NCBI GenBank assembly: GCA_963676395.1
Contig: OY781066.1
Coordinates: 704,001-768,000 of the forward strand
Direction of reading: 5' to 3'
DNA from: a bacterium
GTDB taxonomy: Bacteria; Fidelibacterota; Fidelibacteria; Fidelibacterales; Fidelibacteraceae
DNA length: 64,000 bases
Shown here: positions 6,199 through 38,559 of the stretch, piece after piece
Position numbering within the stretch: position 1 is the first letter of the stretch
Layout: each line of letters opens with the position of its first letter
Notes under the pieces: model-generated
Database searches by the model: none
Told to the model about the DNA's origin: nothing
The model's input: the letters and a program-made list of their open reading frames with translations, nothing else
Made by a program: the position numbers and the translations under genes

Positions 6199-7095
6199 AT
6201 GCAAAGAATATTTCAAGATTTCATCTATCACCTCCAGGGTGAACGACAACTGTCTCCCAATACGGTACAATCCTACCGAAAAGATATAAAGCGTTATCTC
6301 GAACATTTTAAAAGCATGGGCATCAAAGATCCAAACCTTATCCAAACCGATATGGTAATCACCTACCTTGATCAATTATCTGGTATTCCCCTGGCCCCAA
6401 CCTCTTTGGCAAGAAATCTCTCTTCCATGAGAATGTTTCATCGATTCATGATGAACGAAGGTTATGTAAGTAAGGATGTTACAGAGAATATCGATTCACC
6501 CAAGCTACCTAAACGCTTACCCAAAATTTTGGATATTGAAGATATCGAAGCGATCTTCACCGAGATCAACACCGATACGGATGCAGGAATTCGCGATAGA
6601 GCCATGCTGGAGCTCTTATATGGCTCCGGGCTGAGAATCTCAGAACTGCTGACACTAAGGTTGCCGGCTGTCATGCTAAACGAAGGCTGGATCCGTGTGT
6701 TTGGCAAAGGTTCCAAAGAAAGGATCGTTCCCTTTGGAGATGAAGCAGGTGTCTGGTTAAAGAAATATATCAAACACGTTCGTCCCATGCTGGCCGGAAG
6801 TATAAAAGCAGAAGATTATATTTTTTTAAATCGCAGTGGGGCACCACTCTCCCGAATGGGCGTTTGGAAGATCATTCAAAAATATGCTCAATTGGCACTT
6901 ATCGACAAACCCGTTTCACCGCATGTTTTCAGGCATTCGTTTGCAACCCACCTTTTAGAAGGCGGTGCCGACTTAAGAGCTGTTCAAGAAATGCTGGGAC
7001 ACTCGGATATTTCAACTACGCAGATCTATACCCATCTTGATAGAAATTATTTAAAAGAAGTTCACAAAACCTTTCACCCAAGGGAAAAACGATAA
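6199..7095 (+). CDS. xerD: Site-specific tyrosine recombinase XerD
   Basis: RDRAMLELLYGSGLRISEL, GKGSKERIVP and SPHVFRHSFATHLLEGGADLRAVQEMLGHSDISTTQIYTH; housekeeping context. Confidence 0.88.
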   Translation: MQRIFQDFIYHLQGERQLSPNTVQSYRKDIKRYLEHFKSMGIKDPNLIQTDMVITYLDQLSGIPLAPTSLARNLSSMRMFHRFMMNEGYVSKDVTENIDSPKLPKRLPKILDIEDIEAIFTEINTDTDAGIRDRAMLELLYGSGLRISELLTLRLPAVMLNEGWIRVFGKGSKERIVPFGDEAGVWLKKYIKHVRPMLAGSIKAEDYIFLNRSGAPLSRMGVWKIIQKYAQLALIDKPVSPHVFRHSFATHLLEGGADLRAVQEMLGHSDISTTQIYTHLDRNYLKEVHKTFHPREKR

Positions 7096-8954: not shown

Positions 8955-9794
8955 ATGGATAAGATCATGGAAGCTTATAGCAATTTATTAACACAAAAAC
9001 GCTACAGTCCCAATACCCAAAAAACATATATGGGATATTTTTCCGATTTCCGAAGATATTTCCGATTTAAAGACATCTATCATATTGGCAAAGATGAAAT
9101 CAATCGATATATCCTAGATCTTATTCAGACAAATAATATTTCTCCGAGTCAGCAAAATCAACGCATTAATGCAATCAAATTCTACTATGAAAAGGTTTTA
9201 GGTCGAGAGAAAGAGTATTATAACATTCAGCGACCAAAAAAAGAATATCATTTACCCAAGGTTCTAAGCAAAAAAGAAATAAAATGCATGATTCAATCAT
9301 GTGAAAACCTTAAACATAAATGTATTTTAATGATACTTTATTCGGCCGGATTAAGGCGTAGTGAATTATTAGATCTACAAATTGACGATATTGATTCCAA
9401 AAGAATGTTAATCTTGATCAAAGGTGCCAAAGGTAACAAAGACAGAATAACACTTTTATCCGAAAGGCTACTTAGCATGCTTCGGGATTACTATAAAAAA
9501 TACAAACCCGAAAAATATTTATTCGAAGGTCAAAGAGGAAATAAGTATTCAGCTTCTAGTGTTGCCAATATTCTTAAACATGCAACCCTCAAGGCAGGGA
9601 TCAGAAAAAATGTTACACCTCATATGCTTAGACATAGTTTTGCCACACATTTACTTGAACAAGGAACTGATTTAAGATATATTCAAGAGTTATTGGGCCA
9701 TAATAGCAGCAAAACAACAGAAATTTACACTCATATATCAAAAAAAACGATTACAAACATACAAAACCCTATGGATGACATGTTTGAAACATAA
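8955..9794 (+). CDS. Tyrosine recombinase/integrase, putative cassette-array integrase
   Basis: SAM-like N-terminus (YSPNTQKTY...SQQNQRINAIKFYY) and intact catalytic residues (GLRRSE, KGNKDR, HMLRH, LLGH, TEIYTH); no IntI-type insertion between KDR and HxLRH. Confidence 0.92.
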   Translation: MDKIMEAYSNLLTQKRYSPNTQKTYMGYFSDFRRYFRFKDIYHIGKDEINRYILDLIQTNNISPSQQNQRINAIKFYYEKVLGREKEYYNIQRPKKEYHLPKVLSKKEIKCMIQSCENLKHKCILMILYSAGLRRSELLDLQIDDIDSKRMLILIKGAKGNKDRITLLSERLLSMLRDYYKKYKPEKYLFEGQRGNKYSASSVANILKHATLKAGIRKNVTPHMLRHSFATHLLEQGTDLRYIQELLGHNSSKTTEIYTHISKKTITNIQNPMDDMFET

Positions 9795-9811
9795 ATGCAA
9801 AATAAACACAA

Positions 9812-9876
9812 TAAACAATACATGCCATATTGGAGATGTATACACAATAGGCATACACTAACGTTGTGCCCAATTA
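9812..9876 (+). other. Putative primary (attI-like) recombination site
   Basis: CATACACTAAC-GTTGTGCCCAAT (9852-9874) resembles the right arm of the repeats but has no full left arm; short hairpin ATGCCATATTG/CAATAGGCAT (9822-9854). Confidence 0.6.
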
Positions 9877-9896
9877 AATGAAAAGACTACATAGTT

Positions 9897-10766
9897 ATGG
9901 AAGAAGAACTTAATTCAGAGATTAAAAAGTTGATTCCAAAAGTGTATGATGATGCATTACAACCATCAGTCATTGAGATTGGCAAATCAATAAAGGAAAC
10001 TGTTAAACTCGCCTTGAAACCCTACAATGGAATAATTTGGTCAATTGATAAATCTTTCGACTGGTTAACAAACACAATATCTCAAAGAGTTGAAAACTAT
10101 AAAATCAAAAAGATAAAAGCTCCGAATATTGAGACCACAATTAAGGTTATTCAGGGAGTACAGACAACAGGAGCACTAAATGATTTTGTTCCAAGACATC
10201 TATTTGCCAATCTATTGTTTTCGGAAATAAATGCAGAATACGGACATGAAACCCATCCAGCTTATGCAGAACTTTTAAAACAATTTACTCAAGAAGAATG
10301 TAAAATTTTATGCGTCATTGCAAATAGACCTTTATCAATATATTCAACAAGTACATTAAGCGATAATTATTTTGACTATAACTACAAGGAGAAAGAAAAA
10401 ATAAGATATAGCAATGAAACTCATGATTTACAAATAAAATGTGGATTTACAGAAACTGCACCTTTAAGTCTTTACATTGACAACTTATTAAGACTAGGTA
10501 TTATAGAAAGACAATCTACCAAACATGATGAAATACCAAGCTCTACAAAAGAAGAAGCATCTGTTTATCATAGAGAACTTAAACTATTTGAGGAATATCA
10601 AAAACGATATAAAAATGATAGTCGTTGTCCAAAAAGTGTAAAAATCAGAATTGATATAATTAAACCAACATATTTTGGTCAAAACTTTTTAGGTGCAATT
10701 GGTGCCAGCCAGTTTTATGACCACTACAGTAATATTTTTATAAAGCCAGATTGGATAAAAGATTAA
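9897..10766 (+). CDS. Abi-alpha (DUF4393)-like protein, cassette 1
   Basis: N-terminal PKVYDDALQPSV.EIGK, LFANLL...HPAYAELLKQ and IDNLLRLGII patterns. Confidence 0.65.
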   Translation: MEEELNSEIKKLIPKVYDDALQPSVIEIGKSIKETVKLALKPYNGIIWSIDKSFDWLTNTISQRVENYKIKKIKAPNIETTIKVIQGVQTTGALNDFVPRHLFANLLFSEINAEYGHETHPAYAELLKQFTQEECKILCVIANRPLSIYSTSTLSDNYFDYNYKEKEKIRYSNETHDLQIKCGFTETAPLSLYIDNLLRLGIIERQSTKHDEIPSSTKEEASVYHRELKLFEEYQKRYKNDSRCPKSVKIRIDIIKPTYFGQNFLGAIGASQFYDHYSNIFIKPDWIKD

Positions 10767-10785
10767 ACCTTTAAAGAAGACTAAT

Positions 10786-11403
10786 ATGTTTTTTAAAACA
10801 CCAAACATCAAGATTGAAAAAATTGGGAATGTCGAAATCAATCCTCATTATCATCCGATTTTTGAAAAAATTGCTTACGATACGTTTCAAAAATTTATAG
10901 AAAAGGAAAACAAGTTACATCAGGTACAATCTTTATCTGACCAAAAGGTTAAAAAAACAAAGTTTTTAAAAACGATTGACCTACTTGGAAAAATCATATC
11001 AATTATTTCGGGTATTGCAATAGTTGTATTTGTGATTTTTTTACTTGCTGGTAAAACATCAATTGGTAGTGTGCAAGTATCAACTCTTTTAACAGTTATT
11101 AGTTTCACTTTGATTGGTGGAATTATTTCTATTGGCGGTGTGCAAATGTTTTCTTTTAATGCCTCGTTGAGAAAGAGTGAAAATAAAATAAGAGAACACC
11201 TAAATCGAAATTTGGAATGTCCCTTTGATAGAATACTAAAAACTGATAACCCAAATTGGCACAATAGACAGCCGGGAAATCCAGATTTTTGTATGCGCTG
11301 TCCATTAGGGATTGATATTTCAGGTAATGTAGAGGGTGGACTAATACATGTTTGTAAAGTATACATGAATTATCATAAAAGGTGGTTAGACAACAAACAA
11401 TAA
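10786..11403 (+). CDS. Hypothetical two-TM protein with Cys-rich C-terminus, cassette 1
   Basis: Two hydrophobic segments; CPF...FCMRCP...HVC; stop codon abuts repeat 1. Confidence 0.6.
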   Translation: MFFKTPNIKIEKIGNVEINPHYHPIFEKIAYDTFQKFIEKENKLHQVQSLSDQKVKKTKFLKTIDLLGKIISIISGIAIVVFVIFLLAGKTSIGSVQVSTLLTVISFTLIGGIISIGGVQMFSFNASLRKSENKIREHLNRNLECPFDRILKTDNPNWHNRQPGNPDFCMRCPLGIDISGNVEGGLIHVCKVYMNYHKRWLDNKQ

Positions 11404-11546
11404 CTGGGCACAACATTTTGTATAAGTAATGGCAGGCGATGTAGTAAATATCAATGTTTGTAGCGCGCTCAAACTGCGTAGCGGTTTGACAGGAAACTAC
11501 CACGCAATCTGCCACTACTCATACAATTTACCGTTGTGTGTAATGC
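11401..11546 (+). repeat. attC-like cassette site, copy 1
   Basis: TAACTGGGCACAAC...TTGTATAAGTAATGGCAG...CTGCCACTACTCATACAA...GTTGTGTGTAATGC. Confidence 0.9.
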
Positions 11547-11562
11547 AAAAAAAAGACAGTAC

Positions 11563-14328
11563 ATGAAATTTAAAACCCAACATTTAAGAAATATTATAGA
11601 TGCTAACAATGATAATCGATTAGCGATTTTTGTTGGAGCTGGAGTTTCAAAAAATTCTGAAACTAAAGGACTAAAACTTCCAATATGGCAGGATTTAATT
11701 GATGATTTGAAGAAAGATTTAGAATTAACAAGTGAGACAGACTTTTTAAAAATAGCACAACTTTATTATCTGGAATTTAAAGAGTATTCATATCTTAAAA
11801 AACTAAAAAAATATTTTCCTGATAACATAAGACCTTCTTCAATACACAAACAAATATTTGATTTAAATCCTCAAGTAATTATTACAACTAATTGGGATAC
11901 AATTCTTGAGAAAACGATAGAAGAAAATGCATATATCTATGATGTAATTCGTTGTGATGAAGATTTAGTTAAATCCACAATTCAAAAGAAAGTGATTAAA
12001 ATGCATGGAGATTTTAAAAATCACAATATAGTTTTCAAAGAAGATGATTACTTGAATTATCAATATAATTTTCCATTAATCGAAAATTACGTAAAAAGCA
12101 TTTTGTCTACTCACACTGTACTTTTTTTTGGTTATTCATATAATGATATCGATTTCAAACAAATAATGAAATGGTTGCAAAATTATTCAAAAGTACAACC
12201 GCCAAGATATTTAACTGTCTTTTATGAAAATTCAACACAAAATAAGTATTTAGAAAATCATGGAATAACCACATTTGTGCTTGATGAACCCAATAGTTCA
12301 ATGAATCTTCAAAGCGACTATACTGAGAATACAAAGTATTTCTTAGATTTAATAAAAGATGATGAAAGAATTAACTTCTTAAAAACTGAGAATGACATTA
12401 TCGATTTTGTTTTCAATAAATTAAAGGTGCTTTCTGAACTCAATGGTATTTTAATTGAGCAAATACAAACCTCATTGACTAATTGTGGTTTTCTGTATGA
12501 TGATAGCAATAAAACAATATTGGAATTTCGAGATAAAATACTCACATATGACTTAAATAAAGAAAAGAGAAATATATATAAGGAATTTGTAAAAATACTA
12601 AACGCGCAAGACGATAAAGGATTATCAAACAAAACTTTATATAGTATTTTTGAAATTTTAAGTAAAGCCAATATACAAGGAATTGTTATCACTGAAGACG
12701 ACTTATCAACTAGAGAAAAGAAATATATAGTTCTAGATGATTATTTAACAGATAAAGAATTCAATCTTGAATCAAAGTACCTTGATTTTGATTTTTCATT
12801 TGAGGACAAATCAACAAATGATATTTATGAATTGCTTCAAAAATCATTCATTTTATATCAGCTTGAAGATTACGAAAAAGCATATGAGATTGTTGAAAAA
12901 ACAATAATACAGTGTTTAAAGCAAAAAAATTATACTGTTTTATTTATTTCAATGTTTAATAAAAATGTTCTTCTCTGGAAATTGAAATATGGCTTTTTTC
13001 AAAATAGAAAAGTATATGAAGATATTGAAGAATATAATTTAGAAGAGAAGTTTAATCAGCTTCCAAAAGATTTACAAGGAGCACTTAAGCCAATTTACAA
13101 CTTCTTAAACTCTTGTTATTTATATATATTTGCATATAGAATATCAGAAGAATTAAATAAAAAAGAGGGATCTAAAAAAACTATAGAATCTGGTGGTTTT
13201 GTTTTAAATTCTAATATTACCGAATCTTCTTCAAAGCATAAAAATCTAATTTCATTTATACTCCGCAACGGAATAATTTTAGAAGGGAGAAGCGAATTTC
13301 AAAGTATCAATAAATATTTCCTGAAAATTTCTATTATAAGACAGGTTCAGAATAAAGCAACTACATTTAACGAAATAGAGTTTTTTTCAGCGATAAAGTA
13401 TCTTTCGAATAAAGAATTAAAACATTTACTATCTGAATTTTACAAATATGATTCTGACAAAAAGGGCAAATTTGAAATTTCAGAAGAAAATAAAAATTGG
13501 TTAATTAATAAGGTGTTGATAAATCTTGTAAAAAGATATATAAACTCCGACAATGCGTTTAATACATTTGAAAAATACTTAGAAAATACAATCTTCTTAC
13601 TTTCATTAACAAAACTATCAGATGATGAAATTTCAAAAATTTTAGAAAGCTTTAATAACATTATCGATAAAGCTAAAAACACAATTGGAATTTACGAATC
13701 AATAAATCTTTTCTTGGGAAACCAATATAATCTTCATAATACATCCATTAATGAAAGTTCATTACTTAATTTGATAAAATCTATCATTAATAAATTTGTA
13801 AGCAAGCAATATAATGGATACGATTTTCATGCAATTACACGCAATGAAATTTCGAATTTATATGGTTATGCAAGAGAACAAAAAGCAATATTTAAAGAAA
13901 AAGCATTGATTAATAAATTAATTGATGCATCAAAAGAACTACCAATAGAAGAACAATTAAATATTTCAGAATCTCTTCTTCTTAGTATTTATGATATTTC
14001 TACTGATGAAATTAAGACCAAAATTAAAGAATATATTTTGAGCATAAAATCAAGTGAAACAAAAGAAAAACATGATTATTTAATATTTGAGCTCATCTTA
14101 GTTATTCGTGATTTTAAAAATTTAGAAACAGATTTAATCAAAGAGCTTGAAGAATATTTTGAACCATATAAAGACTCAAAGTCATTTTCTTCAATTTGGT
14201 ATTCAATAGATAGTCAGATAGATTATTTAATAAAAGAAAAGCAACTAACTCAGCTCAAAGAAGTTTCTTCAACGATAAAAACGTTAATAGAAAACTTTAA
14301 GAAAAGTGAAAGATTTTCAATACTTTAA
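11563..14328 (+). CDS. SIR2-domain NADase, DSR2-like defence protein, cassette 2
   Basis: FVGAGVS, ITTNWD, KMHGD and KEDDYLNY..NFPLI...THTVLFFGYS, plus long helical C-terminus; ATG at 11563 because the GTG at 11536 lies in the repeat. Confidence 0.82.
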   Translation: MKFKTQHLRNIIDANNDNRLAIFVGAGVSKNSETKGLKLPIWQDLIDDLKKDLELTSETDFLKIAQLYYLEFKEYSYLKKLKKYFPDNIRPSSIHKQIFDLNPQVIITTNWDTILEKTIEENAYIYDVIRCDEDLVKSTIQKKVIKMHGDFKNHNIVFKEDDYLNYQYNFPLIENYVKSILSTHTVLFFGYSYNDIDFKQIMKWLQNYSKVQPPRYLTVFYENSTQNKYLENHGITTFVLDEPNSSMNLQSDYTENTKYFLDLIKDDERINFLKTENDIIDFVFNKLKVLSELNGILIEQIQTSLTNCGFLYDDSNKTILEFRDKILTYDLNKEKRNIYKEFVKILNAQDDKGLSNKTLYSIFEILSKANIQGIVITEDDLSTREKKYIVLDDYLTDKEFNLESKYLDFDFSFEDKSTNDIYELLQKSFILYQLEDYEKAYEIVEKTIIQCLKQKNYTVLFISMFNKNVLLWKLKYGFFQNRKVYEDIEEYNLEEKFNQLPKDLQGALKPIYNFLNSCYLYIFAYRISEELNKKEGSKKTIESGGFVLNSNITESSSKHKNLISFILRNGIILEGRSEFQSINKYFLKISIIRQVQNKATTFNEIEFFSAIKYLSNKELKHLLSEFYKYDSDKKGKFEISEENKNWLINKVLINLVKRYINSDNAFNTFEKYLENTIFLLSLTKLSDDEISKILESFNNIIDKAKNTIGIYESINLFLGNQYNLHNTSINESSLLNLIKSIINKFVSKQYNGYDFHAITRNEISNLYGYAREQKAIFKEKALINKLIDASKELPIEEQLNISESLLLSIYDISTDEIKTKIKEYILSIKSSETKEKHDYLIFELILVIRDFKNLETDLIKELEEYFEPYKDSKSFSSIWYSIDSQIDYLIKEKQLTQLKEVSSTIKTLIENFKKSERFSIL

Positions 14329-14339
14329 TGTGAAAGAAA

Positions 14340-14485
14340 GCACTACACACAACATTTTGTATAAGTAATGGCAGACAATGTGGTAAATATCAAGGTTTGT
14401 AACCCGCTCCAACTGCGTAGCTGTTTGACAGGGAAGTGCTACGCAATCTGCCACTACTCATACAATTTACCGTTGGCTGCAATTG
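14340..14485 (+). repeat. attC-like cassette site, copy 2
   Basis: GCACTACACACAAC...same stem as copy 1...GTTGGCTGCAATTG. Confidence 0.9.
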
Positions 14486-14504
14486 AAATGAAACTCATCA
14501 CAAC

Positions 14505-15671
14505 ATGAAAATAAATAAACTTAGACTTGAAGGTGTTGGAGGAATAGAATTTATTGAATTAATTTTCAATAGCCAGATGAATCTTTTCTGTGGCCCTAAT
14601 GGAATTGGCAAGACAACAATTCTCGAATCCATAGCACACATTTTTTCAAATGGTCGAACGAACATTTTAAAACGGAATGTAAATAGTGCAAACAGCAAGA
14701 TTTGGATTCAAATTGATGATAGTGGACAAACAAAAGAGAAAGAAATTCATTTTGATACATTTGTGCCTGAAGTTCCAACAGAAATTAGACAAGCACTAAA
14801 TCAATACTCAAATCAAATTCTATCTTTAAAAACTAGTAGGATTTTTCAATACCAGTCATTGCAAGCCGTTAATAAAGATTCTTTAAAGGAAACACATTTG
14901 ATTTGGAATGATGCTATCAATGGCATTCAATTAGCCGATGTGAAAAACTGGTTTGTAAATAGATATTTATACTCAGCACATCCAGGAGCTTTAACAGAAG
15001 AACAACTTGCGAATTATGAATTAGCAAAATCTTGTTTTTCATTTTTAAATGAAGAGTTTTCTTTTTCAAAGGTTGATGCCTCTTCAAATGAAATTATGGT
15101 CAGTACTCCAAGTGGTACAATTTATTATGAATATTTATCATCTGGTTTTAAATCAATAATCTCAATATTATTTGGAATAATAAAGGAAATTGAATTTAGA
15201 TTTACTAATCCAAGAATAAAAGCTGTTGATTTTGAGGGGATAATTCTAATTGATGAAATAGAACTTCACTTACATCCAGAGTGGCAAGAAAAGGTTGCAA
15301 GTGTACTCTTAAAGGCATTTCCAAAAGCCCAGTTTTTTGCAACAACTCATAGTCCACATATCATTCAGACAGCGTTACCAAATCAAATAATTGCCTTGGA
15401 GGCAAGTGATAAGAAAACAATCCAGAGAGAGCTTCCTGATACTGAATTTGGATTTCAAGGATGGACAATAGAAGAAGTATTAACTGATGTAATGGGAATG
15501 AAAGATACTAGGACCGAATTATTTAATCTGCTTATGTACGATTTTCAGATAAATATAGATAAAGAAAATTATGAAGGTGCATTAAAGATATTTGAAACTG
15601 TAGATTCTTTATTGCATCCTCACAACGAACTTAGAAAACTTTTAAAATTTCAACTCGCTGGAATTAAATAG
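14505..15671 (+). CDS. ABC/AAA ATPase, PtuA (Septu)-like, cassette 3
   Basis: Walker A GPNGIGKT, signature LSSGFK, Walker B ILIDEIELHLHPEWQ and TTHSPH. Confidence 0.8.
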   Translation: MKINKLRLEGVGGIEFIELIFNSQMNLFCGPNGIGKTTILESIAHIFSNGRTNILKRNVNSANSKIWIQIDDSGQTKEKEIHFDTFVPEVPTEIRQALNQYSNQILSLKTSRIFQYQSLQAVNKDSLKETHLIWNDAINGIQLADVKNWFVNRYLYSAHPGALTEEQLANYELAKSCFSFLNEEFSFSKVDASSNEIMVSTPSGTIYYEYLSSGFKSIISILFGIIKEIEFRFTNPRIKAVDFEGIILIDEIELHLHPEWQEKVASVLLKAFPKAQFFATTHSPHIIQTALPNQIIALEASDKKTIQRELPDTEFGFQGWTIEEVLTDVMGMKDTRTELFNLLMYDFQINIDKENYEGALKIFETVDSLLHPHNELRKLLKFQLAGIK

Positions 15672-15678
15672 AAATTAA

Positions 15679-16422
15679 ATGATTAAGCTTAATAGACTTT
15701 TTACACCTCTCGGATTATCTCCAGCTTTTATTAAAGCACAAACACTTGAATTTAAAACAAATGGAACAAATGTATGGAATGTTAACTGGTTAAAAGAATC
15801 GCTACTACAGTTAAGTTTTCAAAAATGTGCCTATTGTGAATGTTCTTTGAGCGTTGAAAGTAATTATATGGAAGTTGAGCATTTTGAAGACAAAAGTGAT
15901 TACCCAGATAAAGTTTTAATTTGGGAAAACCTTATTCCTTCTTGCAAGAAATGTAATGGTTCGAAAAGTACTCACGATGTAAATAAAGAACCAATTGTTA
16001 ATCCATTTATCGATAATCCCTCTGATGAATTTTATTTTAGATTATACAAGATAAAAGGAATTAAAGAAAAGGGTATTCGAACAGAATCCATATTAAATTT
16101 AAATCACCCTGAAAGAGCAATAAAAAAACGATTTGAAATTGGTGAAGCCTTAGAAAACTTAATTGAACAAGCATTTGAACGGTTGATTAATTTTGAGGAA
16201 AGTTCAACCGTACTTCGAAGAAACAAGCTAAATAATATTGTTGAAGAAATTCTACAAGAGAGTCAACCTGAATCTATATATTCTGCAACTTGTGCAACAA
16301 TTCTTCATTCATGTTTGAGATATAATGAAATCAAGATAAAAATGGAAAAATTAGGTTTATGGACTTCAGAATTTGATAATTTACATGAAAAATCGAAAGA
16401 AATTGTACTAGAAATGAAATAA
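15679..16422 (+). CDS. HNH endonuclease, PtuB (Septu)-like, cassette 3
   Basis: KCAYCE...EVEHF...WENLIPSCKKCN..K; directly after the ATPase. Confidence 0.8.
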   Translation: MIKLNRLFTPLGLSPAFIKAQTLEFKTNGTNVWNVNWLKESLLQLSFQKCAYCECSLSVESNYMEVEHFEDKSDYPDKVLIWENLIPSCKKCNGSKSTHDVNKEPIVNPFIDNPSDEFYFRLYKIKGIKEKGIRTESILNLNHPERAIKKRFEIGEALENLIEQAFERLINFEESSTVLRRNKLNNIVEEILQESQPESIYSATCATILHSCLRYNEIKIKMEKLGLWTSEFDNLHEKSKEIVLEMK

Positions 16423-16566
16423 CAACTGCTGCCAACAATGTATATACAAAATAGGCGAGATAGTAGTAAATTCAAGGGTTGTAGCCCGCTTCAAAATTGT
16501 GACGGTTTGACAAGTTTGAAGCCCGCAATCGCCTACTTTGCATATACTTACCGTTGGCAACAATAC
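16423..16566 (+). repeat. attC-like cassette site, copy 3
   Basis: CAACTGCTGCCAAC-AAT-GTATATACAAAATAGGCGA...TCGCCTACTTTGCATATAC-TTACC-GTTGGCAACAATAC. Confidence 0.9.
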
Positions 16567-16598
16567 AGGACACACCTCAGTTGTAAAGATTATGAAAT

Positions 16599-19115
16599 AT
16601 GATTGAAAAGAAAATTGACAAATCTATTCTCCTTGATGATTTGGAGCTATTTAAATATTTAAAGGATAATGATAGTGAATTCGTATCGTTAATTGATGAT
16701 ATAAATGCCAAAGTTAAGAACCTGCTCAATAGTGGTATACCAAAAGTATTTTCATCATACACCTTACATGACATTGAACATTCATATCGGATAATAAAGT
16801 ATATGAGTGACATTATTCCTGATATTTCAAAATTAAATGAACTTGAAATTACTATTCTGATACTTGTTGGATTGTTGCATGATGTTGGAATGGCTGTGTC
16901 CACAGAGGATTTAGAGTTAATTAAAAATGATAATTACCCTCATTTTGATGTGAAGTTTTCTGCAACTAAAAAATATGTTGGAGGTGATGAAAACTTAGCA
17001 TTGCAGGAATATATAAGAATGTATCATGCTCAAATGTCGGGAATATACATTGAAGAAAAGTTAAAAGACAAGCTGAAAATTTCTGAAAACTCTACCTTAT
17101 CTTTCATGGATGATGTTATTAAAATCTGTAGAAGTCATACTGAGTCATATGAATGGATTAAGCAAAATTTGAATCCGTACACTGTATTAGGTGATTATGA
17201 ATACAATTCCTTATATATTTCTCACTTATTGAGACTTGGAGACATCCTAGATATTGATGAAAAAAGAACTCCTTTAAGCTTGTATAACTTGATAGCTCCT
17301 AAAGGTAAAAGTGAAGAGGAATGGGATAAGCATTTCATAATTCAAAATTATGAGAAAATTGAAATAAATCCGAAATCAAAATTAAAGCAGATTGCTTTTC
17401 ATGGTCATTGTTCTAACGCACATATACACCGTAAATTACTAGAATTTTTTGATTGGGTTAATGAGGAACTTTTGAATGCATTAGCATCAACGAATAATAT
17501 GCAAGAGCAGTATAGGCTAAATCTCGAAAATTCAATCCTTCAAAATATTGTAACCGAGGGCTACACATTTTCTGATTATAAAATGAAACTCGATTTTGAA
17601 GCAATTAGTTCTTTATTGATGGGGGAAAAAATATATGGAGGAAAAGAACTAGGATTAAGGGAGCTTATTCAAAATTCGATAGATGCATGCCGATATAGGA
17701 CAGAATTAGAAAACATAGGAAAAGAATTTGGCGAAATAGATTATGAGCCTAAAATAAAAGTTATTGTAGACAGTAAAAACCAGATTATTTCAATAAAGGA
17801 TAATGGGGTAGGTATGTCAATTGGTGTAATAAAGAATCACTTCTTGAATATTGGCAAATCTTATTATAATTCATCCGAATTCTTGTTGCAAGATGTCGAG
17901 TATAAACCAATAGGAAATTTTGGAATTGGGTTCCTTGCATGCTTTATGTTATCTAATAATATTAAAGTAGTGACTAGATATTATAATAGCCAAGACAAAT
18001 ATATTATTGAACTTGAAAAAGGAAACGAATTTACATCTATGTTGAAATCAAATGACGTAAGATTTGAAGGGACGGAAGTTGTTTTTAATCATGATGAATT
18101 TATGAGTGTTTTCAATGATAAAATTGAAGATATATCAAATTTTCTGAAAAAATATTTTATTACTGATGGCATTGAATTAGAACTTATAAATGTAGATAAG
18201 AAAGAACGGATTTCTATCGAAAATAAATTTGACAAAAACATAACACCAGATAAAGGATTTCTAATTGATTTAAGTTCTTATTTAAAGGAAATAGAAGGCT
18301 ATGCGATTGTTAAACACCGCAATAGCTTTATTCACACTTTAGATGATATTGGCTTTGAAGGTGAACTTTATTTTTATGATTATGAAAAGGGATTATATGA
18401 AGTAGAGGATTTATCGAAAGTTGATATTGATTTTTATATACTTAACAATAGAATTAGATATTTCAATATTCCATTAGTTGAAAATGAAAATGTATCTGAT
18501 TACCTCAATGGTTTAAGATATACTGATGATGATGTATCAGAAGTAATTGATAAAATGGTCAATGACTTAAGATGGATTTCTATACTCCCTCAAAGAGATA
18601 CTGATTCAATGATGTCTGACCAAATTATAGATAATGGAGATACTTTTTTTGACAATTTAGAGTTCAGCGACTTAGTAAAATTAGGTCACGATGACACATG
18701 TAAAACAAAGATGTTTGAGAAAGAGCAAAATATATTTGAAGGAGAAAAAAGTAACTTATATATGCCTTTTGAGCAAAAAGAAGACAATTACTGGAGATAC
18801 TATTATAGAAAAAAAGAAAAACAAAATTTGTATGTAAGAAATGTTTTAATCAAGGACTTTGATTTTTCTTTTAATACTAAAGCATCCATTTTTGACATAA
18901 ATGATGTAATAGTCAATGTACAATCAAAAAAAGTTGTTCCTGATATTTCTAGAAATAATTTGGATTCAGAAACAGAAAATAGACTTAACTATTCGATAAG
19001 CAGAGCAATTCATATTGGATTACTTAATAGTGAAAAATTGTTAGATAATGAAAGAGAAACTCTTAAGTTATTTATTGATGAGTTTTATACTGACAAAACT
19101 GAATTTGATAAATAA
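16599..19115 (+). CDS. HD-CE domain plus HSP90-like GHKL ATPase, cassette 4
   Basis: YTLHDIEHS..LLHDVGM..LRLGDILD HD motifs; LRELIQNSIDA, DNGVGM and GNFGIGFLACFM GHKL motifs. Confidence 0.8.
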   Translation: MIEKKIDKSILLDDLELFKYLKDNDSEFVSLIDDINAKVKNLLNSGIPKVFSSYTLHDIEHSYRIIKYMSDIIPDISKLNELEITILILVGLLHDVGMAVSTEDLELIKNDNYPHFDVKFSATKKYVGGDENLALQEYIRMYHAQMSGIYIEEKLKDKLKISENSTLSFMDDVIKICRSHTESYEWIKQNLNPYTVLGDYEYNSLYISHLLRLGDILDIDEKRTPLSLYNLIAPKGKSEEEWDKHFIIQNYEKIEINPKSKLKQIAFHGHCSNAHIHRKLLEFFDWVNEELLNALASTNNMQEQYRLNLENSILQNIVTEGYTFSDYKMKLDFEAISSLLMGEKIYGGKELGLRELIQNSIDACRYRTELENIGKEFGEIDYEPKIKVIVDSKNQIISIKDNGVGMSIGVIKNHFLNIGKSYYNSSEFLLQDVEYKPIGNFGIGFLACFMLSNNIKVVTRYYNSQDKYIIELEKGNEFTSMLKSNDVRFEGTEVVFNHDEFMSVFNDKIEDISNFLKKYFITDGIELELINVDKKERISIENKFDKNITPDKGFLIDLSSYLKEIEGYAIVKHRNSFIHTLDDIGFEGELYFYDYEKGLYEVEDLSKVDIDFYILNNRIRYFNIPLVENENVSDYLNGLRYTDDDVSEVIDKMVNDLRWISILPQRDTDSMMSDQIIDNGDTFFDNLEFSDLVKLGHDDTCKTKMFEKEQNIFEGEKSNLYMPFEQKEDNYWRYYYRKKEKQNLYVRNVLIKDFDFSFNTKASIFDINDVIVNVQSKKVVPDISRNNLDSETENRLNYSISRAIHIGLLNSEKLLDNERETLKLFIDEFYTDKTEFDK

Positions 19116-19260
19116 GTACTGTTGGCAACAATGTGTATAGTGCATAAGGGTTTCAGAGGTTTTCGAGCATTATCACCCACATCAATTTTGGGTGGTAACT
19201 TGACAGGTTTGAAGCCCGCAACCCCTTACGACACCATACACTCAACGTTAGCGGTAATTT
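19116..19260 (+). repeat. attC-like cassette site, copy 4
   Basis: GTACTGTTGGCAAC-AAT-GTGTATAGTGCATAAGGG...CCCTTACGACACCATACAC-TCAAC-GTTAGCGGTAATTT. Confidence 0.9.
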
Positions 19261-19295
19261 AAACTCCAGAAATTGGACCTAATAACATCAAAATT

Positions 19296-19985
19296 TTGAA
19301 AGAAAAAGACACATGCTGTTACTGTGGTAAGAACTCTGAGTCAAGAGACCATATCCCATCCAAAAATTTATTGGAAAAACCATTTCCAGATAATTTATTA
19401 ACAGTACCGTCTTGCATAAAGTGTAATCAATCATTTTCATTAGACGAAGAATATTTTCTAAATGTATTAGTTGAGATTTCAAACAATCCGACTTTAATCG
19501 CAAAAAAAGAGCCTAACGGTAATGTTTATAAAGCACGAAAGCGGTCAAAAAAATTAAATGATAGAATTGAAAATTCATTGATTCAGTTAGAAGATGGAAA
19601 AATCTATTTTAGAATGGAAGAAAACAGAATTAAAAAAGTTATAGAGAAAAATGCACTTGGACTCTACTTCCATAAATACCATAAACTTGCTAACCTGAAT
19701 AAATTTAATTGTACTGGATTCTATCCGTTTTCAGTTGAAGAAACAAGACCTGCAGAAATTTTCATGTTGACTTATTCTGAAAAATTTAGAGCCAAAAGAT
19801 GGACAACAATTCAAGAGAATGTTTTTTCATATATAGTTGTACGAGATTGGAGGAGAGGAAAAAAATTGACAATGATTTTTCATATTCATAACACAGTATG
19901 GTGTATTATTGAAATTCCATTTCCAACATCAACGAAAAGATTAAAAAGACAAAAGAATTCTCATACTGAAAAAATAAATTTATGA
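19296..19985 (+). CDS. HNH-like endonuclease
   Basis: CCYCG...RDHIPSK...TVPSCIKCN; TTG start. Confidence 0.7.
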   Translation: MKEKDTCCYCGKNSESRDHIPSKNLLEKPFPDNLLTVPSCIKCNQSFSLDEEYFLNVLVEISNNPTLIAKKEPNGNVYKARKRSKKLNDRIENSLIQLEDGKIYFRMEENRIKKVIEKNALGLYFHKYHKLANLNKFNCTGFYPFSVEETRPAEIFMLTYSEKFRAKRWTTIQENVFSYIVVRDWRRGKKLTMIFHIHNTVWCIIEIPFPTSTKRLKRQKNSHTEKINL

Positions 19986-20398
19986 ATAAACCACAAAAAT
20001 ACATTATTTCATTTCTACCTGCTGCAATATTTTTGTTCAACCAAATATTGATAATGTTTATTCGACCGATTATTCCTGCCAATAGATTTGAGTTACTATC
20101 AGAAATATTTGGTTGGTTACCCAACTATTTAGCTTCAGTCGGATTTGTTCTTATGAGTATGCTCCTATTAATAATTATAAAGGAATTAAAGCTGGATAAA
20201 AAGTACGCACGTTATTATAATATATATATGATTTTTATATCAGTGATTGCATTATTTGGTTTTATATGGTGGGAAAATCAACAGAAAAACAACTCGATGA
20301 TATATGATTTAAAAGATATTTATGCAACAGTTTGCGGCGTTATTACTGGATATTCAATATTTTTAATATTATACTTTAAACATAAATTCAACAACTAA
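19982..20398 (+). CDS. Hypothetical four-TM membrane protein
   Basis: Four hydrophobic segments; WLPNYLA and D..D..AT..G patterns. Confidence 0.6.
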   Translation: MNKPQKYIISFLPAAIFLFNQILIMFIRPIIPANRFELLSEIFGWLPNYLASVGFVLMSMLLLIIIKELKLDKKYARYYNIYMIFISVIALFGFIWWENQQKNNSMIYDLKDIYATVCGVITGYSIFLILYFKHKFNN

Positions 20399-20448
20399 AA
20401 GATATTAATTCTGATAAATTAACGAACAAGTTGACTTTAAATGACAAA

Positions 20449-20593
20449 CACCAGCATACAACAATGTGTATAATTCATAAGGGTTTCAGAGGTTTTCGAT
20501 CGGTTTCACCCGAATCAATTTTGGGTGGTAACTTGATAAGTTTGAAGCCCACAATCCCTTACGAAATCATACACTTAACGTTAGCGTGTATTA
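20449..20593 (+). repeat. attC-like cassette site, copy 5
   Basis: Core highly similar to copy 4: ATACAAC-AAT-GTGTATAATTCATAAGGG...CCCTTACGAAATCATACAC-TTAAC-GTTAGCGTG. Confidence 0.88.
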
Positions 20594-20645
20594 CCACAAC
20601 AGAGACATAGATCGCAAAGTTTCTTTATAGGAATATTTAGCTAAA

Positions 20646-21089
20646 ATGAGAATTGAGAAAATTATCAATAACAAAAAGAAATACCTTGATTTATTGCTGT
20701 TAGCGGATGAGTCAGAGGATATGATTGACAGATATTTGGAAAGTGGAGATATGTTTGCACTATTCGATGATGACGTTAAAACTGTTTGTGTTGTTGCTGC
20801 AATAGATAAAGAAACTTGCGAATTGAAAAACATAGCAACTTATGAGAAATATCAAGGTAGAGGATATGCTAAAGCATTAATAAATTATATTTCTAATTTT
20901 TACAAAAACGATTATAAAACAATGCAACTCGGAACAGGCGATATCCCAGCAATTTTGTCATTTTATGAAAATTGCGGATTCAAAATATCACATCGATTAA
21001 AGAATTTTTTTACTGACAATTATGACCATCCAATGTTTGAAGACGGAATACAGCTTATAGATATGGTTTATCTAAAGAAAAAATTATAA
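20646..21089 (+). CDS. GNAT family acetyltransferase
   Basis: [15 protein letters not shown]...YQGRGYAK and FYENCGF motifs. Confidence 0.88.
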
Positions 21090-21105
21090 TAGCTAAATTA
21101 TTAAG

Positions 21106-21285
21106 ATGAAATCCATTGATGTAAAACAAGCAATAGATAGTGATGTCGAAAGAACAACCCGGTTATTTTATGATACAATTCAGAATGTCAATATAAGGGA
21201 TTATTCCCAGGAAGAGGTTGACGATTGGTCATCATGGAAAACTGATACAAATAAGTGCTTGGATAAAATGAAATTGAGAAATTAA
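21106..21285 (+). pseudogene. Truncated YafP-like GNAT (N-terminal 59 aa)
   Basis: Manual translation MKSIDVKQAIDSDVERTTRLFYDTIQNVNIRDYSQEEVDDWS... stops before the acetyl-CoA motif. Confidence 0.6.
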
Positions 21286-21340
21286 TTAATGAATATTCAA
21301 AAAATTAAATTACCGGCATAACAGGTGAACTATATAAGAC

Positions 21341-22339
21341 ATGAGATTACAAATAAAACATAAAGAATTGAAGAGATTGAAAAAAAGAACAGGATTTACC
21401 ATTACTATTTTTGTTGCAATTATGAATGTTATTACAATACATGCGCAAACCAGGTCACTTAAAGAAACTGATTTAATTTGTTCAAATAATGAAAAACCTC
21501 ATGTCGCATTTTCTTTTGATGATGGTTCAACAAAAGACAAACTTACTTACAAAAATTCGGAATGGAATTCGATGATACGAAAACAACTGAAGGATAATCA
21601 TATTCAAGCAGTTTGGTTTGTTGCGGCAAAAGGAATGGATAACGACAAAGGTAAACAGTTGTTGGAAAAGTGGAACAAAGATGGCCATCTGATCGCAAAT
21701 CACACGTATAGCCATTTCAATTACAATGATTCTTTAATGACTTGTAAAGCATATACCAAAGATATACTGAAATGCGATTCATTGATAAGCAGTTATACAA
21801 ATTATAAAAAAATAGTTCGCTTTCCGTATTTAAACGGAGGTAACACTATCTCGAAACGAGACAGCTTGCTTGATTTTCTTCAACAAAATGATTATCGGCA
21901 AGGATGGGTAACTATTGATAATTGTGAATGGTATATAAATATGAGATTGATGAATCGTTTAAAAGAAAATCCTGATGCCGATTTTAGTGGATTTGGAGCG
22001 TATTACGTTAATCATATTTTCGAAATGGCACAACATTACAATAAGCTTTCAACTCAGATTAATCAACGGCAAATAACACACTCTCTCTTATTGCATTTCA
22101 ATCTGACTTCAGCACTGTTTTTAAATGATTTGATTGAAAAATTCAGAAAAGAAGGATGGATAATTGATAATTACAGCGAAGCAATGAATGACCCGGTTTA
22201 TTCAGGTCAACCTATTGCAATACCATCCGAACAAAGTATAATTTGGATGCAAGCAAAGCAAAAAGGTGGATTTGAATTAGATTACGATGAAGAAAACATC
22301 AAACATCAGGAAGACAAAATGGCTAAATTGGGATTATAA
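21341..22339 (+). CDS. Polysaccharide deacetylase (NodB-like)
   Basis: FSFDDG, IANHTYSH, RFPYL and LLLH motifs; start uncertain. Confidence 0.85.
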   Translation: MRLQIKHKELKRLKKRTGFTITIFVAIMNVITIHAQTRSLKETDLICSNNEKPHVAFSFDDGSTKDKLTYKNSEWNSMIRKQLKDNHIQAVWFVAAKGMDNDKGKQLLEKWNKDGHLIANHTYSHFNYNDSLMTCKAYTKDILKCDSLISSYTNYKKIVRFPYLNGGNTISKRDSLLDFLQQNDYRQGWVTIDNCEWYINMRLMNRLKENPDADFSGFGAYYVNHIFEMAQHYNKLSTQINQRQITHSLLLHFNLTSALFLNDLIEKFRKEGWIIDNYSEAMNDPVYSGQPIAIPSEQSIIWMQAKQKGGFELDYDEENIKHQEDKMAKLGL

Positions 22340-22356
22340 AAATTACTCCCAATACT

Positions 22357-22656
22357 ATGCTTGATTTCGGATCATCACAAAATCCATTGGTAACAAGTGT
22401 ACATCATCAATCAGTAAAGAAAACAGGGGAAAATTTCCGGGTAATTGCAACGTCATTAGATAGAAAAGTCGTAGAAGCTATTGCCAATACAAAATTTAAG
22501 AATGTTTACGGCGTTCAGTTTCATCCGGAGTTTTCAACTTTATATAAACAGAAAGAGTTTAGAAATTCAAAAAACAATATTGTTTCATTTAACGATAATG
22601 ATAAACAATTTCTTAAACATTTTTGGAAAGATTTCAGTTTAAGATTATATGCTTAA
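22357..22656 (+). pseudogene. C-terminal fragment of peptidase C26 / gamma-glutamyl hydrolase
   Basis: VTSVHHQSV...VEAI...GVQFHPE present; nucleophile-containing N-terminal half absent. Confidence 0.7.
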
Positions 22657-22757
22657 AAAACAAAGAAAACGATGGGCATGTCCATCATGTGGTGGTGTCG
22701 TTTATTTTTATCATTACAGATGTAGTAAATGTGATAAAACTGTAGATGTGTGATTTT

Positions 22758-22915
22758 CCACATCGCCTAACAGCGAATATGCTCTACGGCTTCGCCTTGG
22801 CCTTCTTCAAATTAACCCTTTGAATATTTTCTAAAAAATTATGATATTACTCTATAGAATATATTCACACCCACAAAGGGCTGAGTTTACTTCATATTTT
22901 CGTTAACGGCAATTA
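22758..22915 (+). repeat. Divergent attC-like site, copy 6
   Basis: GCCTAAC (22765-71)..GAATATG...CATATTTTC-GTTAACGGCAAT (GTT at 22902); interior unrelated to copies 1-5. Confidence 0.55.
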
Positions 22916-22931
22916 AACAAGAGAGACAAAC

Positions 22932-24113
22932 ATGACACAGAGAACACTTACTTTACTCCTCATTTTACTCTTAAGCTTCATTGGAACTGAGAGTTTGAAA
23001 GCACAGCAAAACACAGTCAAGCAAGATGAAACTATTTTTGTTTGGGGCGGAGATATTAACACAAAGTTTGTCCAATATGTCGCTGATCTGACAAAAAAAG
23101 AACATCCCAAAATCTGTTACTTACCAACGGCAAGTGCAGACAACCCGGATAATATTAAATATTGGGAAAATATATGTAATAGGTTACAATTAGATACTCT
23201 AATTCTAAAAGTGTGGGTAAGTTCTTCAGATAAAAATCAATCATTTGAAGACATCCTTCTGAACTCTGATGCCATCGTGGTTGGCGGGGGTAATACCTTG
23301 AATATGCTGGGAATTTGGAAAGCGCAAGGCATAGATAATATTTTGAAAAAAGCATTAAAAAATGGAATAATTTTATCGGGAGGAAGTGCCGGTTCAATAT
23401 GTTGGTTTCAGAACGGTATCAGCGATTCACGCCCTGTCAACTTAAGTATTGTCAAAGGCTTGGGTTTTTTACCTTTTAGCAATTGCCCGCATTACTCACA
23501 AGAATCAAGGAAAGACTTATATCATCAAATGATAAAAAACAGGAAAATGAATCCGGGTTATGCAACTGATGAGCTATCCGGAATCCTTTTCAAAAATGGG
23601 AAAGCTGTAAAATCCATCAGCCAAAGCGACCTACACAAGGCTTATTTTGTAAATCGTAAAAAAGGAATAATTAAAGAGACTAAACTCAAATCAGACTTTT
23701 TACTTAAGAAAAATGCTCTTCCTGAAGGCTCTTATTCCTCCCAATCCATAAAAAAGAAAATTAATGATCTATTAGATTCCAATGACAGTTCCTCGCCAAT
23801 GAATGCGTGTATTTCTGACATAAAATCCATAAGATTAAACAAAGAGAACATGAGTGAATCGGCAAAGAAAAAAGTGTTGGATATGGGTATCGAAAAAATA
23901 TTCATTTACCAAAATAAAATAGCTGGAATTGTTAACAACGCCTACCTTGACTCTTTTGGATATGGCATGTGGTATTATTATAACTGCAACGGTATTTGGA
24001 AAAGTATGGGAGAAGACATAGGCGGAAAAACAATATTTGAAAGTGAAATTACATTTCGGGAAAAAGCAAAAACAATTATCAAAAAAGCTGAAAATAAATT
24101 AAACTGCCGCTAA
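22932..24113 (+). CDS. Secreted peptidase E (S51)-like protein
   Basis: Signal peptide; LPTAS, VGGGNTLNML, GGSAGS and CPHY motifs; stop codon falls in the TAAC core of the next site. Confidence 0.85.
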   Translation: MTQRTLTLLLILLLSFIGTESLKAQQNTVKQDETIFVWGGDINTKFVQYVADLTKKEHPKICYLPTASADNPDNIKYWENICNRLQLDTLILKVWVSSSDKNQSFEDILLNSDAIVVGGGNTLNMLGIWKAQGIDNILKKALKNGIILSGGSAGSICWFQNGISDSRPVNLSIVKGLGFLPFSNCPHYSQESRKDLYHQMIKNRKMNPGYATDELSGILFKNGKAVKSISQSDLHKAYFVNRKKGIIKETKLKSDFLLKKNALPEGSYSSQSIKKKINDLLDSNDSSSPMNACISDIKSIRLNKENMSESAKKKVLDMGIEKIFIYQNKIAGIVNNAYLDSFGYGMWYYYNCNGIWKSMGEDIGGKTIFESEITFREKAKTIIKKAENKLNCR

Positions 24114-24205
24114 CATTTTGTTTAAGCAAAAGCCGGGAAATACCGCACACTCCAACAATTTACTGTTGATAGCAAGTGCAGCAGAGCCACAGAGTACTTA
24201 AACAA
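24101..24205 (+). repeat. Degenerate attC-like site, copy 7 (right GTT core lost)
   Basis: AAACTGCCGCTAAC-ATT-TTGTTTAAG ... CTTAAACAA. Confidence 0.55.
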
Positions 24206-24225
24206 CCACTAAAAAAGATTAAAAT

Positions 24226-24900
24226 ATGGGATACTATATTAACTTAGAAAAAATATCAATTGATGATTATCGGATAAAATTAGAATCAGCTTATCTGCCA
24301 CCGAGCAGACTGATCCTTAAGGACAAATTGGATGAACGATTTGGATATTTTAAGAGCATTGGAATTAAAAATGTTAAAGAATTGATACAGATACTCAAAA
24401 AAAAGGACAAAATAGCTGAACTATCAAAAGTTGATTGTTTATCGGGTGATTATTTGAAAATATTGCTTAGAGAATTAAACAGTACACTACCAAAACCTAA
24501 TAAGTTTGCCGATTTTACTGGAATTTCACAAGAAACAGTTGATAAACTAAAAAATATTGGCATAAAAAATACAGCGAAATTGTATGATAAAGTTTTAACA
24601 AAATCAGACCGGCAAAAGCTTACTGAGGCAACAGGCATAGCTGACAAAGAGATTTTAGAATTGACTAAATTGACAGATTTATCAAGAATTAAATGGGTTG
24701 GAGTGACGTTTGCCAGAATGCTTTACGATTTAAAAATAGATACAGTGGAAAAAGCATCAAAATCTGACCCGGTCAATTTACATTCAATGATAAACCAATT
24801 AAATAAGGAAAAAAGCATTTATAAAGGACAAATTGGATTGAACGACATTAAAATATTCGTGAATGCCGCAAAAGAAATACCTTTGGAGATAGAATATTAA
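24226..24900 (+). CDS. DUF4332-like helix-hairpin-helix protein
   Basis: KLKNIGIKNT...DLSRIKWVGVTFARMLYD..IDTV pattern. Confidence 0.7.
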   Translation: MGYYINLEKISIDDYRIKLESAYLPPSRLILKDKLDERFGYFKSIGIKNVKELIQILKKKDKIAELSKVDCLSGDYLKILLRELNSTLPKPNKFADFTGISQETVDKLKNIGIKNTAKLYDKVLTKSDRQKLTEATGIADKEILELTKLTDLSRIKWVGVTFARMLYDLKIDTVEKASKSDPVNLHSMINQLNKEKSIYKGQIGLNDIKIFVNAAKEIPLEIEY

Positions 24901-24975
24901 TAAATAAACAAAAAATTATGCACACCCTCATACCTTACTTGCAATATACTCAACATTAAATAAGCAAATCTCTTT

Positions 24976-25001
24976 AAACTTCTGCCAACATTTTAACCGT
25001 T
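24976..25001 (+). repeat. Collapsed terminal site remnant
   Basis: AAACTTCTGCCAAC-ATTTT-AACCGTT: left end ACT-N6-AAC joined almost directly to the ACCGTT right end. Confidence 0.45.
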
Positions 25002-36516: not shown

Positions 36517-36591
36517 CAGAAGTCAGAAGTCAGAAGTCAGAAGTCAGAAGTCAGAAGTCAGAAGTCAGAAGTCAGAAGTCAGAAGTCAGAA
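36517..36591 (+). repeat. Perfect heptamer tandem repeat (CAGAAGT)x10 plus partial unit
   Basis: Read directly; starts immediately after the ychF stop codon. Confidence 0.97.
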
Positions 36592-38526: not shown

Positions 38527-38556
38527 AAAAGCCCGGGCTTGTCTCGGGCTTTTTTT
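38527..38556 (+). terminator. Intrinsic terminator
   Basis: AAAAGCCCGGG-CTTGT-CTCGGGCTTTTTTT. Confidence 0.75.
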
Positions 38557-38559
38557 ATT

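Follow-up and report, generated by a model that had tools for sequence, protein, structure and literature searches.

The rAID-1 locus of gut Bacteroidales consists of a 5' 'XerD-like' recombinase gene followed by a co-oriented array of low GC content, with intergenic motifs reminiscent of integrons (Ross et al., 10.1101/471110; PMC12247911). According to the same report, homologs with more than 50% identity are confined to Bacteroidales. In the case of integrons, the integrase IntI contains the I2 insertion, which has been described as the defining innovation of these enzymes and is required by IntegronFinder (10.1101/2022.02.06.479319). I2 is held to enable single-strand recombination and to prevent a lethal second exchange (PMC7790495). 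In VchIntIA, the extrahelical base T12'' is bound by P232, H240, and H241, and G20'' by K209, Y210, and W219 (PMC3053210). The passages of Ross et al. on the rAID recombinase contain neither a recombination test nor a remark on the missing insertion. An insertion-less 'Integron-like subgroup' of IS91/IS3 elements has been presented as the closest kin of IntI (Smyshlyaev et al., 10.1101/542381).

In the present study, we examined a 64-kb stretch of bacterial DNA (hereafter, the window) in which a gene had been predicted, from the letters alone, to encode an array integrase without the IntI insertion, distinct from a nearby XerD. About eight co-oriented cassettes lie directly behind this gene. 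We then compared the enzyme, its primary site, and the hairpin sites of the array with those of integrons, Xer recombinases, and the rAID family.

Results

A tyrosine recombinase without the IntI insertion

The source genome is a single contig of 2.34 Mb (95% complete). At E 1e-4 it encodes three tyrosine recombinases, namely the enzyme at 8955-9794, XerD, and XerC, the last of which is encoded elsewhere in the genome and passes TIGR02224 (339 against 335). No IntI was found in the source genome, where seven IntI queries matched only these three genes.

The recombinase contains the Pfam domains Phage_int_SAM_4 (E 3.5e-17) and Phage_integrase, and thus has the IntI-like SAM N-terminus noticed originally. 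The stretch that had been quoted between KGNKDR and HMLRH is present in the ORF. The spacing between KGxKxR and HxxRH is 58 aa, compared with 66 aa in the local XerD and 99-100 aa in the five of seven IntIs that could be measured (the pattern mis-hit in the other two). When the recombinase was aligned with four IntIs scoring above the cut-off of TIGR02249, two gaps of 31 and 11 residues were observed between the two motifs. In IntI, the approximately 42 residues absent here contain the I2 helix together with the hairpin that grips the extrahelical bases. The match to VchIntIA (2a3v) is broken in two at the missing insertion, and the score against the IntI model TIGR02249 (209.8) is below the cut-off of 265. 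Thus, the absence of the insertion, the main point of the original prediction, was confirmed.

The AlphaFold model (mean pLDDT 87.4) has only a short strand and a loop at the position of the insertion, and no extra helix is present in it between helices 170-183 and 200-213. In a comparison with VchIntIA, of the kind that had been proposed as a check, the fold fits 2a3v with the highest TM-score among the matches listed (0.73; rmsd 3.4 Å over 252 residues). The best E-values in both the sequence and the Foldseek searches were to archaeal XerA, with a Z of 23.8 versus 21.9 for 2a3v. A homodimer prediction (score 0.01) gave no verdict. The catalytic set (R134, K159, H223, R226, H249, and Y258) is complete, as had been claimed, and all six residues are invariant in an alignment of 81 rows. 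Between the recombinase and its closest same-genus ortholog (genome G019, 82% identical), dN was 0.106 and dS was 1.17, which indicates that the gene is under purifying selection.

The recombinase also passes NF040815 (237.9 against 220), the archaeal XerA-type model of NCBIfam with the description 'site-specific tyrosine recombinase/integron integrase'. This match, together with the E-values to the solved archaeal XerA structures, would fit a XerA-type dimer resolvase with a housekeeping role on dif. However, NF040815 is not specific, because the local XerD passes it too (225.7). The recombinase remains below both the XerC model TIGR02224 (198 against 335) and the XerD model TIGR02225 (204 against 330), and the genome encodes an XerC and an XerD besides, both above their cut-offs. 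The XerD gene lies 1.86 kb upstream, and its product is about 30% identical to the recombinase; the two are distinct, as predicted. Presence of the recombinase in the genus is patchy, with a full-length ortholog in only four of 21 other genomes, many of which are incomplete. The gene is part of a 16-kb insert between rsgA and yitT; among 15 other genomes of the genus with a match to rsgA, 12 have these two genes side by side. Its GC content is 32%, against 43% in the left flank, and the alignment shows a C-terminal tail like that of IntI and unlike that of XerC/D. The earlier opinion that the enzyme is probably not the dimer resolvase is supported, and we regard a housekeeping role on dif as extremely unlikely. 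A search with a dif-like motif gave eight loose matches, none convincing, so that dif was not located.

The cassette array

All ORFs of the array are on the + strand (Table 1). The GC content, which is 43% in the left flank, drops to 30% between 9864 and 24990. The cargo nearest the recombinase is predicted to be for defense: Abi_alpha, SIR2, Septu PtuAB, and HD-CE with an HSP90-like ATPase. PADLOC identified the Septu proteins PtuA and PtuB with E-values of 7e-156 and 9e-88, respectively. The distal part of the array is decayed. Unit 5 is probably a fused remnant, because its two ends mismatch, and a possible half site is present near 21307 in unit 6. No immunity families were found in the 13 array ORFs scanned, three of which had no Pfam match.

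Two of these ORFs are candidate defense genes. The HD-CE and HSP90-like ATPase ORF (window 16599-19115) had no PADLOC match, and the SIR2 protein (window 11563-14328) has a long C-terminal part without a family match.

Rfam gave no matches in the 64-kb window at gathering thresholds. A scan for Pc-type promoters gave nine sigma-70-like matches versus 7.4 expected, which is not above chance. Elsewhere in the window, a perfect 7-bp tandem repeat of 10.7 copies was observed at 36517-36591, and degenerate 25-nt spaced repeats at 38552-38699 and 58921-58968.

Table 1. Positions of the recombinase, its sites and cassettes, and related features (window coordinates unless the contig is named)
Feature	Position	Strand	Remarks
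Host xerD (context, outside the system)	6199..7095	+	TIGR02225 362, above 329.6
Tyrosine recombinase, 279 aa	8955..9794	+	SAM_4 core-binding and catalytic domains; without IntI insertion; without N-terminal extension
attI-like site	9800..9865	+	Two direct repeats about 35 nt apart; TATA(C/T)A-type box; core GTT at 9863
Cassette 1: Abi_alpha / PDC-S47-like ORF (9897-10766) and membrane ORF (10786-11403)	9864..11533	+	Ends match 10/11
Hairpin site S1, AAC...GTT, 124 nt	11412..11535	+	Bottom-strand G·T wobbles at 10 and 15 after AAC
Cassette 2: SIR2-domain protein, about 921 aa; terminal site S2 (14351-14474)	11534..14472	+	Ends match 10/11
Cassette 3: Septu-type PtuA ATPase and PtuB HNH nuclease; terminal site S3 (16434-16555)	14473..16553	+	Ends match 9/11
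Cassette 4: HD-CE and HSP90-like ATPase protein, 838 aa; terminal site S4 (19127-19249)	16554..19247	+	Ends match 9/11
Unit 5: two ORFs without family match; terminal site S5 (20460-20582)	19248..20580	+	Ends match 2/11
Unit 6, decayed: GNAT, polysaccharide deacetylase, peptidase C26 fragment; degenerate site S7 (22769-22904)	20581..22902	+	
Cassette 7: peptidase S51; short degenerate site S8 (24112-24167)	22903..24165	+	Ends match 8/11
Last unit: DUF4332 protein, then collapsed site remnant at about 24979-25001 (read by eye)	24166..25001	+	
Source-genome clusters without integrase	contig about 1,103-1,108 kb, 1,132-1,140 kb, and 1,832-1,842 kb		

Hairpin sites between the cassettes

Seven sites with AAC...GTT cores lie between the co-oriented ORFs of the array. 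When the 64-kb window was searched with a left-arm profile trained solely on 58 left arms from other genomes, the top seven matches were these same seven sites, each on the + strand. The bases after GTT and the bases before the next AAC were complementary at 10, 10, 9, and 9, and then 2, 4, and 8 of 11 positions; one off-diagonal pair of cassette ends also gave 9/11. The ends of a cassette complement each other only in the circular form. Among 57 consecutive pairs in relatives, the ends matched at 5.1 of 8 positions, versus 2.6 when shuffled and 3.5 within the locus, and none of 2000 shuffles was as high.

In the five strong sites of the window, the bottom strand folded with z of -2.2 to -5.5, versus -0.7 to -4.9 for the top strand; the two degenerate sites did not fold better than shuffles. 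The bottom strand folded better in 56 of 79 sites of the family, and the top strand equally well or better in the other 23. Family sites are 110-195 nt long, and their stem sequences differ among sites while the pairing is kept. To avoid circularity, the junctions in 44 sequences (276 kb) were chosen solely from the match of cassette ends. Of 32 such junctions, 27 had at least 11/16 pairs in the inner stem, while none of 35 on the reverse strand exceeded 9. In 25 of the 27 stems, the top strand has an A facing a C at 15-16 nt from AAC, which corresponds to G·T on the bottom strand, though most of the sites analyzed belong to Bacteroidota enzymes with N-terminal extensions and are related, not independent. 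A wobble often occurs at position 10 from AAC as well, and in some sites position 6-7 carries a mismatch fixed in the opposite sense. All 39 aligned sites have the wobble G; three sites of locus L051 were misaligned by MAFFT.

With a gapped aligner, no unpaired base was found on the AAC arm in 26 family junctions or in the five strong sites of the window. A gap on the other arm was present in 11 of the 26 junctions (internal in three), and such a bulge occurs in two window sites. As a control, the neighborhoods of seven same-phylum IntIs gave no clear arrays; thus, class 1 integrons were used instead. With the same aligner, every one of the seven class 1 attC sites (five distinct) had unpaired AAC-arm bases; six had them at position 9 and five at 16-17. 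These positions correspond to G16 and T23/24 of Nivina et al. (PMC5027507). As the wobble is 15-16 nt from AAC, its T sits approximately at the conserved extrahelical T of integrons. Both base-binding modules of VchIntIA are missing in the recombinase, where the gaps were matched by motif rather than by structural superposition. We infer that the wobble sites and the loss of the base-binding modules are a co-adaptation. In the case of IntI1, recombination of two attC sites through the bottom strand was reported to be unharmed without extrahelical bases (PMC5027507).

A symmetric hairpin scan of 68 GTDB loci and relatives gave 96 matches on the gene strand downstream of the recombinase genes and 25 on the other strand (268 kb), compared with 28 and 40 upstream (478 kb); these counts include overlapping duplicates. 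This concentration bears on whether the recombinase is a bystander, and the array an integrase-less attC cluster made by a canonical IntI that has since disappeared or is supplied by another element. Canonical IntIs do exist in seven same-phylum genomes, and the source genome itself has at least three more low-GC cassette clusters with the same type of site and no adjacent integrase (Table 1), one site of which is 93% identical to S1 over 97 nt. However, the source genome has no IntI, the sites do not have the extrahelical bases that IntI binds, and the hairpins are concentrated downstream of family members on the same strand. The attI-like site described below is also tied to the 3' end of the gene across phyla. 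We therefore regard a bystander role as quite unlikely, and the clusters without an integrase are probably served in trans.

The attI-like site

An attI-like site lies directly 3' of the stop codon of the recombinase gene. It is kept in six to seven aligned relatives, in which homology stops at the core, and the crossover would be at G|TT. The site did not fold better than shuffles. A loose form of the motif was found within 200 nt after the stop codon in 40 of 68 family members (28 were missed) and on the reverse strand in 11 of 68, compared with one of eight Xer genes, none of five IS91-linked genes, and a genome background of 17.6%. In another genome of the same genus (G006, C155:1-800), the same rsgA locus contains the last codons of the recombinase, the same attI-like site, and a first cassette for a TIR-domain protein. 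The first cassette thus differs from that of the window, and homology ends at the core. As nearly the whole recombinase gene is lost there while the site and a cassette are retained, this locus would also suit the bystander explanation considered above.

In locus L051 (10837-20822), near-identical short cassettes bounded at G|TT recur as many as six times; their sequence along the array is A A B C D D E D A A D E D F G H D I A. This permuted order is what site-specific shuffling would leave and, like the different first cassette in G006, may be a trace of earlier recombination; an assembly error is another possibility.

The comparison with relatives strongly supports the putative role of the recombinase as the enzyme of the array behind its gene.

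Relatives and phylogeny

Almost all scored candidates (7996 of 7998) matched the recombinase at E 1e-20. The best 120 of the 7998 are 269-293 aa long and 67-100% identical, and form a clade without the N-terminal extension. Contrary to the stated confinement to Bacteroidales, these close relatives include records named Desulfuromonas sp. SDB, Deferribacteraceae, Desulfothermus, and Cloacimonetes, as well as Sabulitectum. The Desulfuromonas locus has both an attI-like site and a hairpin site. Longer forms of 45-59% identity are common in Bacteroidota. In Bacteroides ovatus and Parabacteroides distasonis, plasmid-borne relatives of 53-54% identity stand at the head of immunity-gene arrays (SMI1/KNR4, Imm26, Tdi1, and PoNi). 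In a phage collection, the best matches were 34-42%. A HARP domain was not seen in the Pfam scan of two long relatives. A Chryseobacterium plasmid carries a group II intron downstream of its family recombinase (L092:18522-19838).

The phylogeny proposed as a check placed the recombinase with rAID-type plasmid enzymes (SH-aLRT 97 and 93), apart from IntI (100) and XerC/D (99-100), in two quick trees made without bootstraps and without archaeal XerA sequences. A closer relationship to IntI than to Xer did not follow, as AU tests, from which 21 of 83 rows (long or redundant ones) were dropped, rejected neither the family with IntI (p 0.30) nor the family with XerC/D (p 0.51).

Relatives of 35-45% identity directly precede IS91-type (Y2) transposases at L071, L076, L077, L081, L086, and 24 metagenome loci, and were grouped with the family in one tree (SH-aLRT 97). 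IS91-type (Y2) elements too use single-stranded DNA. The recombinase might thus be the orphaned resolvase of such a rolling-circle element, with the array having accumulated otherwise; the pairing of a recombinase with IS91 has been described (10.1101/542381). However, no adjacent Y2 transposase was found among the ORFs downstream of this gene, the IS91-linked rows form a group of their own, and the five IS91-linked genes have no attI motif. An origin of this kind appears very unlikely to us.

A family member beside tet(X3)

The tet(X3) module of Acinetobacter has been reported to carry a truncated 'xerD/tpnF' gene (PMC8635130), and xerD has been noted beside tet(X) genes, in the accounts seen here without a reading as a cassette recombinase (PMC7473080, PMC11194056). 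The truncated 'xerD/tpnF' protein is 55% identical to the recombinase and falls in the family tree. On an Acinetobacter indicus plasmid (NZ_CP041297.1; L089:5001-7250), an attI-like site comes after the 5'-truncated 'xerD/tpnF', and then tet(X3) and the left half of a family-type hairpin. The best match of the left-arm profile in this 10.7-kb locus is 23 nt past the tet(X3) stop codon; the match of the cassette ends, judged by eye, is weak (4/8). Fifty-four Acinetobacter plasmid records match the protein. This arrangement suggests that tet(X3) was first captured as a cassette.

Discussion

How the array may be built

The reading that we favor, and consider fairly probable, is that the intact enzyme is the integrase of the array and uses folded bottom-strand sites in an integron-like manner, without gripping flipped-out bases. 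Cassettes would be excised as circles by recombination between two sites, and the circles would be inserted at the attI-like site at G|TT, with the newest first. The bottom strand would be preferred through the wobbles, which are G·T there but A·C on the top strand, and through the asymmetric spacer; wobbles and spacer may thus take over the role of the extrahelical bases in strand selection. A single strand exchange would be followed by replicative resolution. Against this reading speak the role ascribed to I2 in preventing a second exchange, the weaker or absent match in three of the seven pairs of cassette ends, the failure of two window sites and of the attI-like site to fold better than shuffles, the family members without the attI motif, and the 23 family sites in which the top strand folds at least as well.

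In a second scheme, the same recombinase would serve the array in the classical Xer/Cre style, with double-stranded cores or extruded cruciforms, two exchanges, and the repeats as binding arms. The absence of I2 and of the beta-4,5 hairpin, the E-values to archaeal XerA, and the AU test that does not reject the grouping with XerC/D would all suit it, and near-perfect stems are what double-strand palindromes would have. However, the recombining partners share only the 3-nt core, while the flanks vary between cassettes, and classical two-exchange tyrosine recombination tolerates differing flanks poorly. The variation of the stem sequence with the pairing kept, the mismatch fixed in one sense, and the length of the sites also argue against it. 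We thus consider classical recombination rather unlikely here, though less so than the other alternatives above. Returning to the integron-like reading, the clade of the recombinase has no extra N-terminal domain; therefore, no substitute domain can explain the choice of substrate, and the enzyme is a clean test case.

Meaning of the family

A broader proposal is that these enzymes constitute a second widespread class of integrons, with a minimal recombinase that has neither I2 nor a substitute domain and that takes up and reshuffles cassettes by way of single-stranded hairpins, in which G·T wobbles and not flipped-out bases mark the strand. This class would occur in many phyla, escape IntI profiles, include rAID, and have captured tet(X3) before ISCR2 moved it to Acinetobacter. 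We give this proposal an even chance. In the literature searched, which mostly did not extend to subscription journals, no description was found of an insertion-less integrase with attC-like sites that have no extrahelical bases. The present locus adds an enzyme that is both intact and minimal, from a closed genome that encodes XerC and XerD but no IntI; it also adds the relative with a different first cassette at the same locus and the link to tet(X3).

With this enzyme and its sites, a single small protein and a pair of short DNAs would suffice for a direct test of how integrons arose from Xer-like ancestors. If our reading is true, it would provide a mechanism for the rAID arrays, as well as for the 'xerD' recorded time and again next to tet(X) genes. 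In Riemerella, gene uptake that is independent of homology and involves attC-like hairpins has been described (PMC13148043), and the same mechanism may apply there, although this link is putative. The insertion-less family also points to overlooked banks of defense genes.

Comparison with known systems

The recombinase resembles XerC/XerD and archaeal XerA in its fold, catalytic residues, absence of the insertion, and match to NF040815. Unlike XerC and XerD, it is below both cut-offs in a host that has both enzymes, and is patchy, of low GC content, and linked to an array. It is insertion-less and has the same domain layout and length as the 'Integron-like subgroup' as described by Smyshlyaev et al. 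(10.1101/542381), but it has no transposase partner and heads a cassette array.

The locus shares with integrons, above all with sedentary chromosomal integrons that carry defense cassettes, the SAM_4 N-terminus, the C-terminal tail, an attI-like site beside the gene, AAC...GTT cores, the complementarity of cassette ends, the bias toward bottom-strand folding, and the defense cargo. It differs in that the enzyme is without the I2 insertion and the beta-4,5 hairpin, fixed wobble pairs are found instead of extrahelical bases on the AAC arm, and the recombinase gene is co-oriented with the array, with the attI-like site at its 3' end. As two defining features, the IntI insertion and the extrahelical bases, were looked for and are absent, the enzyme falls outside IntI and its array outside the canonical integrons, although it probably works like one.

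The gut Bacteroidales rAID shares with our locus the 5' recombinase, the co-oriented low-GC gene array, and the repeated intergenic sites. A rAID is recognized by a recombinase with more than 44% identity to BF9343_RS08045, at least two co-oriented downstream genes with a GC content of at most 41%, and orphan immunity cargo. In our case, the recombinase was compared with two plasmid-borne immunity-array recombinases instead (53-54%), the array has a GC content of 30% with all ORFs in one orientation, and orphan immunity cargo is absent from the 13 ORFs scanned. The N-terminal extension of about 90 aa in rAID enzymes is absent here (279 versus 367 aa), the cargo is predicted to be anti-phage whereas that of rAID is T6SS immunity, and the sites are about 124 nt long with GTT cores whereas those of rAID are short hairpins with mostly ATT cores. 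Judged by eye, the rAID-type repeats at L090:12828-19604 are a short form of the same design, with matched ends, a hairpin, and a mostly ATT core. The recombinase is 54% identical over 271 aa to the enzyme heading the immunity array of a Bacteroides ovatus plasmid, a rAID-type enzyme, and thus the family is in part the one already made known by Ross et al. in 2019.
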